A DNA stretch of 64,000 nucleotides from a phage. Positions 9,451-34,629 of the stretch are shown one piece after another. Positions within the stretch are counted from its first letter, which is position 1, and the number at the start of each line of letters is the position of its first letter. Position numbers and translations under genes: made by a program. The stretch lies in sequence record NC_101835.1. One strand, given 5' to 3'. A model generated the notes under the pieces. It searched no databases, was not told where the DNA came from, and saw nothing but the letters and a program-made list of their open reading frames with translations.

Positions 9451-9800
9451 CACACAATTAGCTGCCCGGCTAAAGTGCTGGAAGCACCTATAACACATCT
9501 TTCAACTAAATTTCCTACCACCACAATCACTTACCTCCCACACATGACTGTTTGCTTGTTTAGTGAGCAGTCATGCCTTGACATTCTTGCCTATCCTGAT
9601 AAAATTAAGTTCTTCTCTTTTCTTTTACCGAGTAATTCGGGTTTTCTGTTCTCTTCGGTTTGAAGGGGTATGGAGATACACCTGAGTGAACAGGGTGAAC
9701 AACCGAACCTTTGGCTATGGCATTAGCATGGCGAAGCGGACGGGTGACGAAAGAGGGGCCGGAGGACACCAGTCACTGCCATATGATATATGGGTGATAA

Positions 9801-10342
9801 CCTGAAGAGTCTGAATAAGTGTTTAAGTACCAGTCAGAGGAAAAGGTGAATGGTAGCCGAAGGGGGGAGGGGGGTTTCTTGTATCTTTAATTTGTATATT
9901 ATGTATACACTTGTAAACCAATCTAATCTGAATCTGTTTACCACACAAAGCGGATAGAGACAAATATTGCCTATTAAACTTGAATTATTTATAGAAAATA
10001 CCACAACACTACTTAAGTCTTTGATTTTACACACAAATCCTGCAGATATTCACCCTCCATATTTAACATACTTGTAACATATTCCATACTCTACCTGCCC
10101 GATCAATTCACCCAACTACATCCCCATATTTTCCCTGTCTGTACTACCCCTGCCCCGCCGGGAGTCCCATCATATCTGGCTTTCCAGCAAATATCACACC
10201 CACAAATATCATTGCCTGAAGAGGGTTTCATCCCATAATACCTGCCTTACCTGAAGAGCGCTTCATACACCACGTAAATTTTTTAATTGACCTCCCCCTG
10301 CCCCGCCGGAGAGGTTGGCTTTTCCCACACAGACCTGAAGAG
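9801..10342. repeat. dispersed direct repeats (CCTGAAGAG x4; CCCCTGCCCCGCCGG x2)
   Basis: CCTGAAGAG at 9801, 10215, 10250, 10334; CCCCTGCCCCGCCGG at 10148 and about 10295; GACCTACAGG x2 near 10390-10450. Confidence 0.5.
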
Positions 10343-10918
10343 TCAGCCAGAAATATCTGAATAGGCCCAATTCTACCACGATTTTGACCTGACCTACAGG
10401 GAGGCCCGAAGGGTCTAGCTTTCAGCTAGAGTCCTTGCAGGACCTACAGGAGCGCTGCCAGGCGGACGGAATGGGAATACTTCTCATTCTTATAACAATT
10501 CTCAAATATCGAGGCAGTGAGAGAAATTAATAGGCCAGGCCGTTCACACAGTGGCACAACATTTGCAACCTATTTTGTGTGGATGAATGAGAATACCTAT
10601 CATTATGAGAATAGTTATCATTACTGGCAATTTAACATAATACCCATTATGCGCACCACTGGCGATCCATACAGGGATTGATAACATGAGTTACTGTTTA
10701 CGCATATAACAATTATATTTATTACTATTTGTGTTGGGTATAGTTAGCAGCCGATAGATTAGATATTGACCTGCAGACTTCCAACTGTCTAGACGTCTAA
10801 ACGCCCACACAGCAAGGATTATACATACACAACTGAATGTAAACAGGGCCGCAAAAATGCTACCATACCAGATTGTAAATTTTTCATGCAGCACTTGACA
10901 AAGAGGAGGAAAACTTGT

Positions 10919-10960
10919 CTGACATACTGTGACATAATATGACATAATAGTGACACACTG
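10919..10960. repeat. tandem 10-11 bp iterons (TGACATA-type)
   Basis: tgacatactg / tgacataata / tgacataatag / tgacacactg in direct tandem. Confidence 0.5.
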
Positions 10961-11052
10961 GGCATACTCAACACTGGATACAATAACAATTGTTACTATT
11001 GCATGCCTCACTGTTCACGCATAGATGATAAGCCATGCCATTCGTTTGCATG

Positions 11053-11312
11053 ACAATAATTAACTTGTTTACAATCTTTCACTGGCTATGCCAGGTGACC
11101 TTTGGTCACCCCTTCGGGTGTTTCTATGACATAATATAAAAGCAGGGCAACTATTAGAAGATCTATAGTTGCCTTGCTTGTTATGTCATGATTAACTAAA
11201 TACAAGGCAACTATGATCTGATTAATAGATTGCAGACAAACTATCACGGGGGTGATGGTTACTGCTTTTATATTATGTCGCGACTCCGTCGCGCCATGCC
11301 ATTCGTTTGCAT
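11053..11312. repeat. inverted-repeat element bracketed by 19-bp direct repeats
   Basis: CCATGCCATTCGTTTGCAT at 11053-11071 and 11294-11312; inverted arms 11127-11146 and 11262-11279; palindrome 11147-11174; GGCAACTAT 9-mer x4 in alternating orientation. Confidence 0.5.
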
Positions 11313-11972
11313 AGTTGCCTTATTGTTACAGGTAAAATAATTACATTATTAATTATTTCTTATCTTTCTCTTAGTCATCTAATGATTCCAGTCAGTATAG
11401 TAATGTACAGTAAACATTAGACGACTAAATATTTCTCTGTTTATGATAACTCACCGTGACAATTTCGGACTGTTTACGAAAAATGTTGACACCTAAGCTG
11501 ATTTATGTTATGCAGTTTACACGAATAATTATTTTATGCAGGTATTGACTATTCCGTTATTCTGTGGTTGGAATAAATACTTTGCAGGCTATAGAATGGC
11601 GTGCGTACATGAATTCTGAGATCTGGCGGCTATAGTTATACTCGATTTTTCACGTAGAACACGCTTTTTAGTTTGTGTAAGTGTATGACTTATAAGAATT
11701 TTTACTTGTTGACAAGATATTGAAGATCTGCATCAGGTTAAAATTTGTGCAATAGCTGCATTACGTGCAATTTTGGAAGGGAAAACGGGTAAAAATAGCC
11801 CTGCTACCACACAATGAAAAGTTATGCAATAGTTATTTTACATGTATATTTGTACAGTGTGTGGGGTTGATGGCTCGTCAATTATTCCACTTGCCAGGTA
11901 GGGCCGTTTATGGTAGGAGAAGAGCAGACAAAAAGAAAGGGGCCTAAGCCCCTTGATAATTCAGTTAAAAAA

Positions 11973-24346: not shown

Positions 24347-24409
24347 AATACATCACTCTCTGTTAGTTTATGCATATATTATACACTGCAGTTTTCAGAT
24401 GTCAATCTT

Positions 24410-24604
24410 TTACAGGTTACTCCAGTATAATCGGCATTTACATTTTGGGCAATGAGGTTCTTTTATGTAATAACCATCAGTCTTTGGAACACTTTTTGGT
24501 GCAGTTTTAAGATTGTACCTGGTAAAACATCGGAAGCAGGTTACCTCTCCCACCTGTTGATCGTTGATCCACTCACCAGAGTAAAGCTCTTTCTTGTTTC
24601 TCAT
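24410..24604 (-). CDS. zinc-ribbon-like small protein
   Basis: GGGAGAG before ATG (MRNKKELYS); CFRC ... CPKCKC cysteine pairs. Confidence 0.45.
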   Translation of the reverse strand: MRNKKELYSGEWINDQQVGEVTCFRCFTRYNLKTAPKSVPKTDGYYIKEPHCPKCKCRLYWSNL

Positions 24605-24855: not shown

Positions 24856-25254
24856 TCAACACTTTTTGTACTCTACTACAACCACATCAATATCTGTGGT
24901 TGCAAGATTAATTACATCTTCTACATGTTCCCACTTTAGACCGCCAATACCGCATCCGATTTTAGGAATGTAGAACGGCAATGACACACCTTTGAATACC
25001 TCGTTGACTCGCTCAAAACCTTTCATGATTGAGAAGTATTCAGCATTGGGCCCTGGGTAGAACTGGGTATACAGGTTGATTCCATATACGACCCTGTTCT
25101 TGGCAAAATGCTCCCAACAAGAAAACATACCCAGCTTGCCTAGATCACCATAAGCAGTCTCTTTGTCGGCTGCCAGTGCTTGAGGGAACTCACGGGCAAT
25201 ATCTTTCGCTATGCCTGCACCCATTGTGTGAAAGCAGTTACAACCGTGGATCAT
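24856..25254 (-). CDS. macro-domain protein (putative ADP-ribose hydrolase)
   Basis: N-terminal HGCNCFHTMGAGIAKDIAREFP and later IPKIGCGIGGL recall the glycine-rich phosphate-binding loops of TARG1/DarG-type macro domains. Confidence 0.55.
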   Translation of the reverse strand: MIHGCNCFHTMGAGIAKDIAREFPQALAADKETAYGDLGKLGMFSCWEHFAKNRVVYGINLYTQFYPGPNAEYFSIMKGFERVNEVFKGVSLPFYIPKIGCGIGGLKWEHVEDVINLATTDIDVVVVEYKKC

Positions 25255-25304
25255 GTGGCCCGACCCTTTCTTGAAAAGAGAGATTAGATCTCCCCCCTAT
25301 AGTA

Positions 25305-25730
25305 TCAATAATCACGGTATGCCAGCTCCTCTTCCGCAATTTCAAAAAACTCAGTCCAGCACTGTGGCATATTGGAGTTACCGAAGTGGCTTTCATAGTA
25401 AAGGTTCTCACCGCTCGGGAGGTAGAAATCTGTTACCTCGTAGAATCCACAATCGTCGCACTCACCTTCTTCAAACTTGGCCTCAACCTTAATACCGAGG
25501 AAGGTGAAAAGTTTATGGATATCTTCAGTTTCGAACTCCCAGCAAATATTGTTTTCCGCATCGGTATAGAACTGGATCAGCAGACCATTGTCCAGTTTAC
25601 CAAAATACTCTGTGAAGTAACTTCCTTCCCAGAAATCTTTATGACAAATAATATCCATGCGTTTGCCCATAATAATGGTGTGAGCGTTTTGGGCATCGTC
25701 ACGAATCAGTTTTGGCATTTCATAGATCAT
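25305..25730 (-). CDS. hypothetical acidic protein
   Basis: GGAGAA RBS. Confidence 0.5.
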   Translation of the reverse strand: MIYEMPKLIRDDAQNAHTIIMGKRMDIICHKDFWEGSYFTEYFGKLDNGLLIQFYTDAENNICWEFETEDIHKLFTFLGIKVEAKFEEGECDDCGFYEVTDFYLPSGENLYYESHFGNSNMPQCWTEFFEIAEEELAYRDY

Positions 25731-26571: not shown

Positions 26572-27150
26572 CTAAAAGTATTCATAGAGGTATCCATCGG
26601 GAGCTGGAATTTTTTCATGAATGTAGTAACCAACATATATTCCGGTTTCTCTGCTGCAAGAGTTGTGGGATACCCATTCTTTAAGAACGTTGCCATTCAT
26701 GTCCAACCTCCTTACATTTTTGCACCGTCTACCGCTGGTGCTTCTATGTAACAGAATATCCTCTGTCTGCTTGTCTTTATTTTCTCCCCAAGTCGTTAAA
26801 CGGATATTATCAAAAGAGTATCCTTTGAAATCGTCTATCCTGTCACAAGAAGGCTTTTTCCTTTTGTCGTATCCGCTGGCTACCCATTGGTCATACAACT
26901 CTTTGTAACCGTTTAGGTATAGCCACTCTTTAAACTCTTTTTTGGTGTAAGTCGGAGGAGGGTGACCTCTTTGCTTGCTGTTGCACTTTTGAGTCTTGTA
27001 CAACACACGTATTACACCTTTTTCTGAAGAGTCTTTAGCAAATTGGTCAGCCTCCCTGCTGGCCTTCTTACAGCACTCTTTGCACGTTGATTTGTTGCTG
27101 GTGTAGAAGTCGGAGGCCTCCTTGTCCTCCCCACAACGTTTGCATTTCAT
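26572..27150 (-). CDS. zinc-ribbon + HNH-like (DRID variant) endonuclease-like protein
   Basis: N-terminal CKRC..CKEC; C-terminal CDRIDDFKGYSFDNIRLTTWGENKDK resembles HNH_3 motif with R replacing the first His. Confidence 0.45.
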   Translation of the reverse strand: MKCKRCGEDKEASDFYTSNKSTCKECCKKASREADQFAKDSSEKGVIRVLYKTQKCNSKQRGHPPPTYTKKEFKEWLYLNGYKELYDQWVASGYDKRKKPSCDRIDDFKGYSFDNIRLTTWGENKDKQTEDILLHRSTSGRRCKNVRRLDMNGNVLKEWVSHNSCSRETGIYVGYYIHEKIPAPDGYLYEYF

Positions 27151-27158
27151 AACTGACC

Positions 27159-28385
27159 TCAGAAAGGGATCGAGTCATCAAAGGCGTACTGTGCTGGATT
27201 CTGATCCATCGGGTCATCTTCCTCATCATTTACAGGAGGAGCGTCTACAGTGTTTTGCTGTGGAGCTGCTTCCTGTTTGGCAGCCTGAGGTTCTTGATGG
27301 TCAGTTGACCCAGCACCGTTCTTGATCCAATCGTACAACGGCTCAGCCAGATTAGTCAAGACATCTTTTGCTTCTGCAGTAATTGCCACTGCAAAATCAT
27401 CAACTTTCGTTTTCTTGTCAATACGGCGACAAGCGTTCAACACCGCATTACCGACACTGGCACCTACTTCATCTTCAGTTCGGTTGGTGGCTTGAGCATA
27501 CTCTTTCTTAAGCTCAATAGTGACTACGTGTAGTGTTTTAGCCACTCCTAATGGGTCGTCTACCTTAAACCCGCGATCCAGGATGATCTGCAACGCATTG
27601 ATGCTATGCCCCGTTTCCACACCGATAGGGTCGTAAGAGGATTTACGCTTGCCACCGGAGCCTTGAGTGCCGTTCTCTGCCTTAGGAGGATAGGCCTTGA
27701 AACCACTGATAATGTTTCCAGTGTCTTTGTCAACAATGGCTGCAACACGACCACCTACCACCAGGTCTTTAAGCTGCTCATCAGTGACAACCATAGCACC
27801 TTCGCCAATCTTGTGGTCATTAACAGTAACCACGTTGCCAACAATCTGAGTCACATCACCATAGATGCGTAAAACGTCCTGATTGGCATTCTGCTGAGGT
27901 TTCTGCTTCTGGCCTTGTGATTGTGCACCTTGTTGCTGTTTTTGCTGCTGAGTCGCTGCTGGAGCCTCTCCTGCACCCAGCTTGACCATCTTAGCCAGTG
28001 AGCCTTTGTAATAGGTCTTACCGTTATGCTCGTTTGCCTTCAAAGGGATATTTACGATCCATCCTGGCGTTACGGTTTCCCACTTGTCATCAATTTTAAC
28101 AGAGACAGAGTCTTGATGACCCGGTTTAAGCAACTTATCGCCCATACTGATCCAAACTTCTTCACCACCTTGAAGCAGGTTATCAGAGGAATCCAGTTCA
28201 GAAATCAGTAAAGAGATGGTGTGGCTGGATTCAATTTTCTTACCTTGCCACACAGTGGTTTTAATACCTGTTGTAGGATCAGCACCTTTGATAGGCTTGA
28301 TGCTGACACGTTTAATCATGCCGTGAGCCAGTAAAACAGTTTCACGCGGATTCATCGGGTTAGCGAATTGTTGAATAACGCTCAT
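27159..28385 (-). CDS. putative ssDNA-binding protein with SSB-type acidic C-terminal tail
   Basis: C-terminus ..DDPMDQNPAQYAFDDSIPF resembles E. coli SSB tail DDDIPF; Q-rich linker; sits in the replication block. Confidence 0.5.
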   Translation of the reverse strand: MSVIQQFANPMNPRETVLLAHGMIKRVSIKPIKGADPTTGIKTTVWQGKKIESSHTISLLISELDSSDNLLQGGEEVWISMGDKLLKPGHQDSVSVKIDDKWETVTPGWIVNIPLKANEHNGKTYYKGSLAKMVKLGAGEAPAATQQQKQQQGAQSQGQKQKPQQNANQDVLRIYGDVTQIVGNVVTVNDHKIGEGAMVVTDEQLKDLVVGGRVAAIVDKDTGNIISGFKAYPPKAENGTQGSGGKRKSSYDPIGVETGHSINALQIILDRGFKVDDPLGVAKTLHVVTIELKKEYAQATNRTEDEVGASVGNAVLNACRRIDKKTKVDDFAVAITAEAKDVLTNLAEPLYDWIKNGAGSTDHQEPQAAKQEAAPQQNTVDAPPVNDEEDDPMDQNPAQYAFDDSIPF

Positions 28386-31929: not shown

Positions 31930-32205
31930 CAATAGTTCAGGTAGGTCGTTAAGCTACCCCGCACCATTACGTGCATAGCCATACGTTTTCACGTAGGATC
32001 GGACCATCTCATATTCCTATGATAAGCAACCACAGGAATCCTCCCATTTCGACCGCACTTGCTGGTCTACTTCCTTTCGGAATGGCCTCTGAGCGTTCGC
32101 TCTTTTGAGCGCTTCGTTGCGGATTACCTTGCCATAAGGTTTAGGCTTCCCGCAGTTAAAGAGGTTATTCGACATAGATTACTCTATGAAGCCACAATGT
32201 TATTT
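31930..32205 (-). other. putative group I self-splicing intron in DNA polymerase gene
   Basis: 276 nt between ..YYH and DE..; 5-prime exon ends in U, intron ends in G; GUGG near intron start can pair with exon CCAU; P-like AACUGCGGGAAGCC and Q-like AAUCCGCAACG; GAAA-capped hairpins. Confidence 0.5.
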
Positions 32206-34629
32206 ATGGTAATAAATAATACGACGAACACCTTCATCGTACCACCCACGCTTCACCATTTGGTGGTGCATAAGTATCCCAACCAAGTCACACAGCGATG
32301 CACCACCATTCTGTTGATATGCATTAAGTAAAGAGTGTTTAGATCGGGTCCAGATGGCATGACCATCAAAAGAGTAGATAAACTTCTTACCCGTTGCTTC
32401 CCAGAATTTCTCCAGATCCTCTTTACGGCCCTTAAGACCAGGGTTGGCATCCCAAAGCGCATCGATTACCCTTTGTCCCAACTCTGGAGAGATGTCCAGC
32501 ATATCTGCAACTTTATCTTTTTGTGCCCCGTACATAACCCCATACGTGATAGGTTTACCGTCGTTACGGGACACCTCTCTACCTGCTACTTTTGTATATG
32601 CCTCAGCATTGTTTTGGTGTGCGTCCCCGTTACTTACAACATCGTAATACAGGCCGTTGTCGAACTCAAAGGCACCCCAAGCCCCGATAAGCTGCTCTAA
32701 GTTGGACCCGTCAATACCGATCTCAAAGTATCCCGGAGGAACACCCCACAGACTACGCATCTCTTTACCCATAACCACTTTAGGAGATGGTTTAGGCATG
32801 TTTGCACAAATACTGTGTTTCTGTCTGGAAGTGTTTGTTAATCCAGAGCTTTTAGCAGGAAGCTTATGGTCAATCTTCAAACGTGGGTGATTAAGAAGAC
32901 CAGTGTCAACCTTATCCTCCTTGATTGGATCAAGTACCGATCTGCGGTTTCGCAATGATAACCATAAGACGATATCTTTAGCCATCTCTCCGTTCAATTT
33001 TTCAAGATTCGGACACAGGTGTCCAAACGTATCTTTCAGTTGCGGAGAAGTAATAAGTGCCCTAGCTTTTCTACGTATTTTCCCGAATACTTCCTTTTTA
33101 ATCCTTTCGGAGTTAGGAAAGCTTCGGAACTTGTGCACTGTTGTCTGAAACTTAGCATCAGTTTTGTTCCAGAAGTTGATAATTAGGTCACAATACTCTG
33201 ACTCTAAAAGCTCGTCCATGTATGCATATACTCGTGCATCAACATCTGCATCAGGTAGAGCTTTCTTCTTGCTGTCTTTAGTTACATCCTTAGTTCTCCA
33301 CATTGTCGGAAGCCAACCAGCACTGATCAGGTATCGCTTAATGTCGTCCTGATTGCTGATTTTCATAGGTATCTTGCAGTCAGGCATTCGCTTCTGCTGC
33401 AGATCGCTTATTGCCTGATCCATCAGCTCTTTAGGCAAAGGTTGTGGTGTGGAGGTGCCCTTAATATAACCTCTCAAGAAATCAGCCATCTTGTCGGGGT
33501 CTTTGCAGCCCATCTCTTCACACCATTTTATCCCCATCTTACTGACATCTCCTGTGGAGGTAAATGCTCTCTTAGGCGGGGCTTTGAACTCTAGAGCGCT
33601 CATGTCTACAGGATAGCCAAGCTTATCTTTTAACCATTTCCAACCATTATTAGAGATTGTCCCGTCTTGGTTAAACGGCTTTTCAGGGAACTTGGGCCGC
33701 TGAGACATTGACAGCTCTTTTAAAGGCAGTTGTGGTTCAACACGATCAGCGATTTCTTTCATCCACGCATCGCAACGGTCACGTAAAGCAATAGCTCCAT
33801 CTATGTCGAAGTATACACCCTGACGGGCCTGCAGCTCCATCAGGAAGTGCTGCAGCATGCCTCGACGTAATGCGTTCTTCCAGGTGATCTTCTTGAACCC
33901 TTTCGGCTTCTCTTTGGCAGGATCGTACATAAAGTTCTGCATGTCAGATTTGCCGTAGAATACACCTTTTGATTCCGCTACCAGTTCTTTCCAGAGCAGC
34001 TCCTGGATGATAACGTCCTCAAATACACGATCCACATACTTCCACAACGGAAGATCGCGCCAGTCATCAATTTGAACTTTCTGGTTACCAAGGGCATAGC
34101 CCCATGCCATAAGGCCGTGGGGACCAACAGGCTGCATTTTCTTAGTAACCGGGTTGAATACAGCGTCCGGACAACCTTTTGGTAAAGGGCGATCAGGCCA
34201 CAAGATTCGGCTCATCGCCAACGTATCAAACAGGTTAACCTGGTGGTCGTTGATAGTCCCCATGCATTTAGGATCACGGAACATATCAAAATGAATACCG
34301 GATAATCTTTCCATCAGCATAAAGTCATAACTGTAGCAGTTATGGCAGTTCAAAGCTGTTGGTGACCAGTCGGAATTGCCTGTAAGCCAACCTTCCAACT
34401 CCGAAAAATCTGCTATGCGAACTTCAAAACCTTTATAAAGAGTTTTCTTTGCCAGAATGAAGTTCTTAGCCTTTTCTATATCCTCCTCGGAGTAGTGTGT
34501 GCGGTCATTTAGAGGAAGGAACAGCATAAAACGGTTCTTATTCAGCTCTTTAAACAGGCCGCAGTGATAATAAAGATCTGGATCTTCCAAAAGCCCTGAG
34601 GCCTCCAGATCGAAGCACCAATTACTCAT
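32200..34629 (-). CDS. DNA polymerase (family A, T7 gp5-like), N-terminal 808 aa / putative exon 1
   Basis: N-terminal FDLEASGL..HCG exonuclease motif like T7 gp5; motif A region IGIDGSNLEQL; motif B KPITYGVMYGAQ; ORF stops at ..RIIYYHK, i.e. at motif C. Confidence 0.85.
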   Translation of the reverse strand: MSNWCFDLEASGLLEDPDLYYHCGLFKELNKNRFMLFLPLNDRTHYSEEDIEKAKNFILAKKTLYKGFEVRIADFSELEGWLTGNSDWSPTALNCHNCYSYDFMLMERLSGIHFDMFRDPKCMGTINDHQVNLFDTLAMSRILWPDRPLPKGCPDAVFNPVTKKMQPVGPHGLMAWGYALGNQKVQIDDWRDLPLWKYVDRVFEDVIIQELLWKELVAESKGVFYGKSDMQNFMYDPAKEKPKGFKKITWKNALRRGMLQHFLMELQARQGVYFDIDGAIALRDRCDAWMKEIADRVEPQLPLKELSMSQRPKFPEKPFNQDGTISNNGWKWLKDKLGYPVDMSALEFKAPPKRAFTSTGDVSKMGIKWCEEMGCKDPDKMADFLRGYIKGTSTPQPLPKELMDQAISDLQQKRMPDCKIPMKISNQDDIKRYLISAGWLPTMWRTKDVTKDSKKKALPDADVDARVYAYMDELLESEYCDLIINFWNKTDAKFQTTVHKFRSFPNSERIKKEVFGKIRRKARALITSPQLKDTFGHLCPNLEKLNGEMAKDIVLWLSLRNRRSVLDPIKEDKVDTGLLNHPRLKIDHKLPAKSSGLTNTSRQKHSICANMPKPSPKVVMGKEMRSLWGVPPGYFEIGIDGSNLEQLIGAWGAFEFDNGLYYDVVSNGDAHQNNAEAYTKVAGREVSRNDGKPITYGVMYGAQKDKVADMLDISPELGQRVIDALWDANPGLKGRKEDLEKFWEATGKKFIYSFDGHAIWTRSKHSLLNAYQQNGGASLCDLVGILMHHQMVKRGWYDEGVRRIIYYHK

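Follow-up and report, generated by a model that had tools for sequence, protein, structure and literature searches.

A frameshifted Vequintavirus orthologue of the T4 macrodomain gene tk.4 (adfM)

In this study we analyzed an open reading frame (ORF) at 24856-25254 on the minus strand of a phage DNA of 64,000 nucleotides (sequence record NC_101835.1, hereafter the window). It proved to be the 3' part of a gene disrupted by a frameshift. A tblastn comparison of 129 ORFs of the related phage phita32 with the 64 kb revealed no second gene that is convincingly frame-split. Homology identifies the locus as the Vequintavirus orthologue of T4 tk.4 (adfM), a small stand-alone macrodomain gene in the early-gene region. 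With a probability of about 0.7 we favour the reading that the intact form of this orthologue is an orphan antitoxin directed against DarTG2, and that the copy in the window is frameshifted with a probably inactive truncated product. The gene family, its fold and the anti-DarTG2 role of its members in T4 and PhiKZ have already been described, and near-identical copies have long been annotated.

The reported ORF and its disrupted 5' end

The ATG-started ORF encodes 132 amino acids with the N-terminal sequence MIHGCNCFHTMGAGIAKDIAREFP and ends with a stop codon at 24856-24858. It carries HGCNCFHTMGAGIAKDIAREFP near its N-terminal end, also contains IPKIGCGIGGLKW, and reads IPKIGCGIGGL further on; three motifs of the family, loop 1 (HGCNCFHTMGAGIA), N-x-Y-T-Q and loop 2 (IPKIGCGIGG), thus lie within 24856-25254. 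The product scored 26.6 bits against the Pfam Macro family PF01661 (cut-off 22, E 6e-6), where full-length relatives reached 25.9 bits, and it matched PHROG 335, labelled 'phosphatase', with an E value of 5e-53. A search of a large protein collection returned 257 homologues (top E 5e-84), mostly 145-160 amino acids long. Because of these matches 24856-25254 is no chance ORF, and the macrodomain protein proposed there by the sequence-only reading is confirmed. That reading had also taken the ORF for the gene itself. It is indeed real coding sequence, but it comprises only the 3' 87% of the gene, since the first 20 codons were missed and one extra G is present.

The 2.5 kb surrounding the ORF share 97-98% identity with rV5-like myophages of E. 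coli (genus Vequintavirus), and the 118 matching records include phita32, PDX, RudolfGeigy, slur12/16, Murica and rV5. Among these relatives the gene is annotated as 'Macro domain protein', 'phosphatase' or 'Poa1p-like family protein', and as 'tk.4' in rV5, so that the gene is not novel. In at least one of them, phita32 (PQ758395.1, 48692-49090), it is annotated in the short 132-amino-acid form despite an intact 152-codon frame, an inconsistency which can mislead comparisons. The locus also shares 88-98% identity with sixteen GenBank records of the MG0656xx series that carry the name 'Campylobacter phage' and give C. jejuni as host, a label that looks doubtful. A tblastn search found the family in 2,818 of 50,697 phage records, in line with the 41% of myoviruses for which a survey reports macrodomains (PMC9503650).

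In slur12, Murica and rV5 the canonical coding sequence has 459 nt and 152 codons, starts with GTG about 60 nt upstream of the internal ATG and overlaps the preceding 141-amino-acid gene by 11 nt. The reported ORF therefore corresponds to residues 21-152 of the canonical protein. The 5' end of the canonical gene lies at 25255-25315 (minus strand) in the window; it has its GTG start at 25315-25313, contains one surplus G and encodes MIIDTIGGDLISLFKKGSGH, which comprises β1, α1 and the conserved G-D-L. A Shine-Dalgarno-like GAGGAG at 25326-25331 (minus strand) is located 10 nt upstream of the GTG, and the Murica record has a ribosome-binding site at the same place. The frameshift site is the G-run at 25292-25297 (minus strand; CCCCCC on the plus strand), which is one G longer than in the closest relatives: the window has GGGGGG where the aligned 5' regions read GGGGG in phita32, GGTGG in slur12, GCGGG in Murica and GAGGG in rV5. 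This extra G (G5 to G6) moves the reading frame after codon 8. A three-frame translation places '...VIIDTIGG' and 'GGDLISLFKKGSGHMIHGCNC...' in successive frames, 'GGDLISLFKKGSGHMIHGCNC...' being directly preceded by a stop codon. The first 20 codons are therefore out of frame with the remainder, and the listed ORF begins anew at the internal ATG. From the canonical start the shifted frame runs over 25238-25315 (minus strand) with 25 codons, MIIDTIGGRSNLSFQERVGPHDPRL, and ends at a TAA (25240-25238) 12 nt beyond the last base of the internal ATG. Removing one G in silico restored a 152-amino-acid protein that differs from phita32 by V6I, N57D and D59G only. Moreover, a 106-nt query over the frameshift site matched 118 phage records, and the full-length matches among those listed all span 105 nt; therefore none of them has the extra base. 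Programmed frameshifting as a conserved feature was rejected because no relative carries this base.

The comparison with 110 homologues points the same way. At least 21 residues precede the invariant Asn in every one of them, against five in the ORF of the window, and the intact frame of about 145-180 amino acids with an N-terminal strand and G-D-L is lost here by the +1 insertion in the G-run. As far as the alignment reaches, the internal ATG is no conserved alternative start: Met occupies this position in 10 of the 110 homologues, and Leu is found in Murica (CTG) and Phi1. Since the ORF is a 5'-truncated piece of a frameshifted gene, the copy as written is predicted to be unable to make the canonical 152-amino-acid enzyme, and the gene copy may not work.

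Neighbouring genes and other features of the window

The macrodomain gene, on the minus strand, belongs to an extended series of small early-type genes located downstream of those for DNA polymerase, primase/helicase and rII. The upstream gene (25305-25730, minus strand; 141 amino acids, phrog_8157) has no Pfam match and ends in an overlap of 11 nt with the start of the canonical macrodomain gene. Within the first 40 nt of the macrodomain gene a putative RNA hairpin, GGGGGGAGAU-CUA-AUCUCUCUUUU, can be drawn at 25274-25298 (minus strand), with the G-run as its 5' arm. A terminator is annotated there in Murica, and slur12 shows a paired change (GGT...ATT) preserving the stem. In the scan for terminators, however, the hairpin at 25274-25298 was not called, and its folding energy was no better than that of shuffled controls (z-scores not significant).

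Further along the strand, 24410-24604 (minus strand) encodes a 64-amino-acid protein with a phage zinc-binding domain (PF23903, E 8e-23). It is 78% identical to ORF090 of the Krischvirus Phi1, which overlaps tk.4 by 11 nt in that phage. The Krischvirus (RB49/Phi1) Tk.4 is itself the closest copy beyond the Vequintavirinae among those directly compared (68% identity); it is intact and occupies the canonical T-even tk.4 position. That both genes are common to Phi1 (68% and 78%) suggests that the macrodomain gene and the gene for the 64-amino-acid zinc-binding protein moved together between T-even-like and rV5-like phages. The 64-amino-acid gene was also considered as a counterpart of T4 Tk.3, but it has no similarity to Tk.3 and matches Krischvirus ORF090 instead. 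Just downstream of it, at 24378-24405 (minus strand), there is a perfect sigma-70 consensus (TTGACA-16 nt-TATAAT), and the rV5 record has promoter P205 in the corresponding intergenic spot.

Two more distant features were recorded. A group I catalytic intron (Rfam RF00028; 64.7 bits against a gathering score of 50, E 4e-14) is found at 31980-32215 (minus strand) in the DNA polymerase region, where rV5 annotates two separate 'DNA polymerase' coding sequences. Besides, about 2.2 kb at ~9,700-11,950 between divergently transcribed blocks hold no long ORFs and no tRNA genes; ATGAGAATAnnTATCATT occurs there three times (10471-10622), and several inverted repeats lie at ~11128-11328. This stretch appears to be the counterpart of the intergenic region of about 2 kb in the vequintavirus Bas54 from which no transposon insertions were recovered, and it may be an origin or control region.

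Macrodomain class, active site and proposed function

The sequence-only reading had placed the protein among TARG1/DarG-type macrodomains and had named profile searches and fold prediction as the means of checking this. Both bear the assignment out. For a full-length orthologue with 97% identity, AlphaFold2 with the 110-sequence alignment gave a confident model (pLDDT 94.9, pTM 0.90) in which β1 (residues 2-8), α1 (10-15) and β2 (20-25) are followed by the further elements of a predicted three-layer alpha/beta/alpha macro fold with two glycine-rich ADP-ribose-binding loops. The closest fold neighbours were BT1257 (score 18.4), the M. tuberculosis DarG macrodomain (17.9), Poa1p (17.4), TARG1 (16.8) and T. 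africanus DarG (16.6), while coronavirus, alphavirus, PARP and MacroD macrodomains scored 13.5 or less. Foldseek put the same BT1257/DarG/Poa1p/TARG1 set on top. Profile matches of the family were strongest to BT1257 (4e-15) and SCO6735 (1.6e-14), followed by M. tuberculosis DarG (2.6e-14), TARG1 (2e-12) and Poa1p (3e-12), and the DarG models of NCBIfam and PADLOC cover the macro part at E values of 1e-11 to 1e-12, far under their whole-protein cut-off. Because fold, profile and DarG-model matches agree, the TARG1/DarG-type call is correct, and alignments and models place the protein in the ALC1-like class (TARG1/DarG/SCO6735/Poa1p), clearly ahead of other macrodomains. Reversal of DarT thymidine ADP-ribosylation has been reported as the unifying activity of this class (PMC9411070).

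Twelve residues are invariant in the 110 homologues, namely G24, N26, C27, G34, A36, D50, N80, Y82, Q84, P117, G120 and G122. In HMMER alignments the catalytic Lys of DarG (FPTK, K80) and that of TARG1 (LITK, K84) align with the invariant Gln84 of N-x-Y-T-Q. SCO6735 and BT1257 read N-M-I-G-Q at the position of Gln84, and the N26/Q84 pair of the family aligns to N27/Q85 of SCO6735 and likewise to BT1257. In SCO6735 both Q85A and N27S abolish activity, and this enzyme reverses DarT thymidine ADP-ribosylation and rescues cells from DarT (PMC9411070). Because N26 and Q84 occur in 110 of 110 homologues and align to SCO6735/BT1257, the alignments assign to the phage family an Asn/Gln pair of the SCO6735 type and no DarG/TARG1 lysine. 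The expectation that the active-site residues would be recognizable in an alignment therefore held for N26 and the loops, but not for the DarG/TARG1 Lys, which is replaced by the invariant Gln seen in SCO6735. The Lys84/Asp125 dyad of human TARG1/OARD1 is also missing, with Gln in place of Lys84 and Gly (IGCGIGG) where TARG1 reads GCGLD. On the other hand, SCO6735 and BT1257, which are bacterial chromosomal proteins (ALC1-like; PMC9411070), have a mobile loop with Lys89/Lys94 that is five residues longer than in DarG and TARG1, whereas the phage profile shows a gap of 5-6 residues there in both alignments. The SCO6735-type loop with its lysines is missing, so the chemistry on DNA is assigned by analogy.

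The nearest relative with functional data is T4 Tk.4. According to a preprint of November 2025, depletion on a DarTG2 host affected tk.4 and no other T4 gene, and a clean knockout sensitises T4 to DarTG2, which is genetic evidence; the gene was renamed adfM (anti-DarT factor Macrodomain) because it protects T4 from DarTG2 defence (bioRxiv 10.1101/2025.11.20.689424). The vequintavirus protein is 39% identical to Tk.4 from end to end (E 2e-43; 152 versus 155 amino acids). HGCNCFHTMG(A/S)G, NLYTQF, IG(C/A)GIG and PHROG 335 are common to both, and both are stand-alone macrodomains in an early or accessory gene block. With N26, Y82-T83-Q84 and the loops conserved along this homology, the protein falls into the Tk.4/AdfM group of the Gln type. 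The contexts differ in that T4 has regB-vs.1-vs-tk.4-tk.3..tk, while the rV5-like gene lies among small early genes downstream of replication genes. A second relative, PhiKZ gp104, was named independently as the chimallivirus AdfM in a 2026 paper in Cell Reports and was biochemically shown to strip DNA of the ADP-ribose added by DarT2 and to give protection from DarTG2 (PMC13309987). Like the protein of the window and T4 Tk.4 it is assigned to PHROG 335, and it is also stand-alone and of the same structural class. However, it is only about 21% identical, retains a DarG-type Lys (FPTK, K78) where the present family has Gln, and is imported into the phage nucleus.

Other known macrodomain proteins are less close. 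DarG of T. aquaticus and M. tuberculosis (PDB 5M31, 5M3E, 5M3I) has a C-terminal DarT-binding domain which the phage protein lacks, and the catalytic K80 of the T. aquaticus protein is replaced by Gln. Against the DarG model NF048014 of NCBIfam the phage protein scored 44 bits with a cut-off of 250, matching positions 9-144 of 338, and is thus not a DarG by this measure. No darT gene stands beside the macrodomain gene, and its neighbours are small phage genes without a DarT match. ICP1 AdfB was discarded as a relative: it is no macrodomain but a mimic of the C-terminal, toxin-binding portion of DarG.

From homology, fold class, conserved residues and the location in the early region, which together with the frameshift form the direct basis of our reading, we infer the substrate, the anti-DarTG2 role in the phage of the window and the inactivity of the truncated form. 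The intact 152-amino-acid form would bind the ADP-ribose that host DarT2 attaches to thymidine in single-stranded phage DNA and would hydrolyse the ribose-base (N-glycosidic) bond, with the Asn/Gln site positioning the distal ribose in an SCO6735-like manner and with no Lys of the DarG type. Removal of the ADP-ribose would allow replication to continue in DarTG2-bearing hosts, the macrodomain thus acting as an orphan antitoxin. The earlier proposal that such an enzyme could reverse DNA ADP-ribosylation by DarT is, by analogy, in line with the genetics of T4 Tk.4/AdfM and with the class-wide thymidine-ADPr hydrolase activity (PMC9411070), while for its alternative, hydrolysis of ADP-ribose-derived signals, no support was found. 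A substrate other than DarT2-modified DNA would leave the DarTG2 phenotype of T4 as one facet of the function or as an indirect effect. Such a substrate might be an NAD-derived metabolite (ADP-ribose-1''-phosphate as for Poa1p, or O-acetyl-ADP-ribose) or an ADP-ribosylated protein or RNA. We regard this as unlikely. The 'phosphatase' label stems from the old A1pp domain name with no assay behind it, and the phosphatase role of yeast Poa1p is unsupported in phages. Functional data on the family are confined to the depletion of the T4 gene, which was specific to DarTG2, and its knockout phenotype; the reported unifying activity of the class is thymidine-ADPr reversal (PMC9411070). Moreover, no KptA/Tpt1, sirtuin or ART gene is annotated in the matching regions of rV5 and bov10K2.

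For the copy in the window, translation from the canonical start would give a peptide of 25 amino acids. The 132-amino-acid protein could arise by re-initiation at the ATG just upstream of the stop of this peptide and would lack β1, α1 and G-D-L. Modelled by AlphaFold2, it showed the rest of the macro fold (pLDDT 92.7), with the first block less confident, and its C-terminal strand was shortened from six residues in the full-length model to three. This shrinkage is only suggestive, but it would fit a normal pairing of β1 with that strand. AlphaFold is no judge of stability, and although it models the fragment confidently, we consider the fragment probably inactive or poorly folded.

Origin of the extra base and its implications

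Whether the extra G is a recent loss-of-function mutation or a homopolymer sequencing error stands at roughly even odds. In the case of a sequencing or assembly error, to which we give slightly less than an even chance, the phage has an intact 152-amino-acid tk.4/adfM and the 132-amino-acid ORF is an artefact; this bears only on the disruption of the copy and leaves the function assignment untouched. An error is suggested by the nature of the change, a single base in a G5 run of a gene that is otherwise undamaged once the G is removed. Of the three substitutions relative to phita32, N57D brings the protein closer to the family consensus 'GD', and D59G affects a variable position. The G6 allele was seen nowhere else, including the full-length matches listed among the 118 phage records. 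In IMG/VR neither the G6 nor the G5 pattern gave a match, and there were none in JGI metagenomes, in GTDB genomes (with a pattern allowing G5 or G6) or in E. coli RefSeq genomes; an exact-protein look-up of the 132-amino-acid product returned no record. As all these searches were empty, they neither confirm nor exclude a real variant. Nevertheless, the rest of the window is clean. This gene is the one convincingly frame-split case among the 129 phita32 ORFs, and the 61 homopolymer runs of at least 6 and 294 of at least 5 in the window are accompanied by no other split, which is a poor fit to an error-prone assembly. This count is based on a protein-level test of frame-splitting, as the list of indels between the window and phita32 with their homopolymer context was mostly alignment noise in divergent stretches. 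A possible second frameshift near 27,100-27,200, at the junction of the 408-amino-acid gene and the endonuclease VII-like gene, was dismissed as true divergence with both ORFs intact. The junction at ~27,080-27,200 (minus strand) differs from the relatives by gaps of 34 nt and 18 nt and by diverged sequence, and the endonuclease VII-like gene there has 192 amino acids in the window versus 207 in phita32 and rV5. A further point against an error is that the phage can presumably do without this gene on hosts that have no DarTG2: its T4 orthologue tk.4 stood out only when the host expressed DarTG2, and for the vequintavirus Bas54 a total of 146 genes count as non-essential in standard laboratory culture. 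This makes a genuine loss plausible.

The frameshift could also be real but bypassed, either by a +1 slip or because the re-initiated 132-amino-acid product is active enough, so that a working enzyme results either way. The shifted frame reads ATA GGG GGG AGA, in which a +1 slip of the Gly-tRNA from GGG to GGA just before the rare AGA codon would restore MIIDTIGGDL..., and the stop of the frameshifted ORF 12 nt past the internal ATG is a geometry permitting re-initiation. AlphaFold, too, retains the remaining fold in the 132-amino-acid form. We nevertheless consider a bypass improbable, since no such device is found in the related records examined and the internal ATG is unconserved. The missing segment holds G8 (conserved in 102 of 110 homologues), D/N9 (108 of 110) and L10 (99 of 110), of which the Asp is presumably the residue contacting the adenine, like Asp20 of Af1521, and the C-terminal strand is halved in the truncated model.

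For annotation, the locus should be read as a frameshifted gene of 152 codons and not as a protein of 132 amino acids. The finding has little discovery value as such, because the family is common and its T4 and PhiKZ members are already tied to DarTG2 counter-defence. What remains is the correction of the annotation, a natural null allele if the G6 allele is real, and the split between Gln and Lys among the phage proteins called 'AdfM'. As for the mechanism, Gln in the T4/rV5 lineage takes the place of the catalytic Lys of DarG and the PhiKZ AdfM, and from the alignments the two proteins that share the name 'AdfM' probably differ in their chemistry. A more far-reaching combination of claims is doubtful in our view: that the extra G is genuine and makes this phage naturally adfM-null, or adfM-leaky through +1 slippage before AGA, while every other sequenced isolate examined in the genus keeps the gene, and that the Tk.4 lineage moreover represents a third catalytic solution among DNA de-ADP-ribosylating macrodomains (the Asn/Gln pair of SCO6735 with a short DarG-type loop), its substrates possibly extending beyond DarT2-modified thymidine. 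Should the G6 allele be real, the prediction would be that this phage, unlike its relatives, is sensitive to DarTG2-carrying hosts, and it would offer a cheap natural test of the function of the vequintavirus gene.
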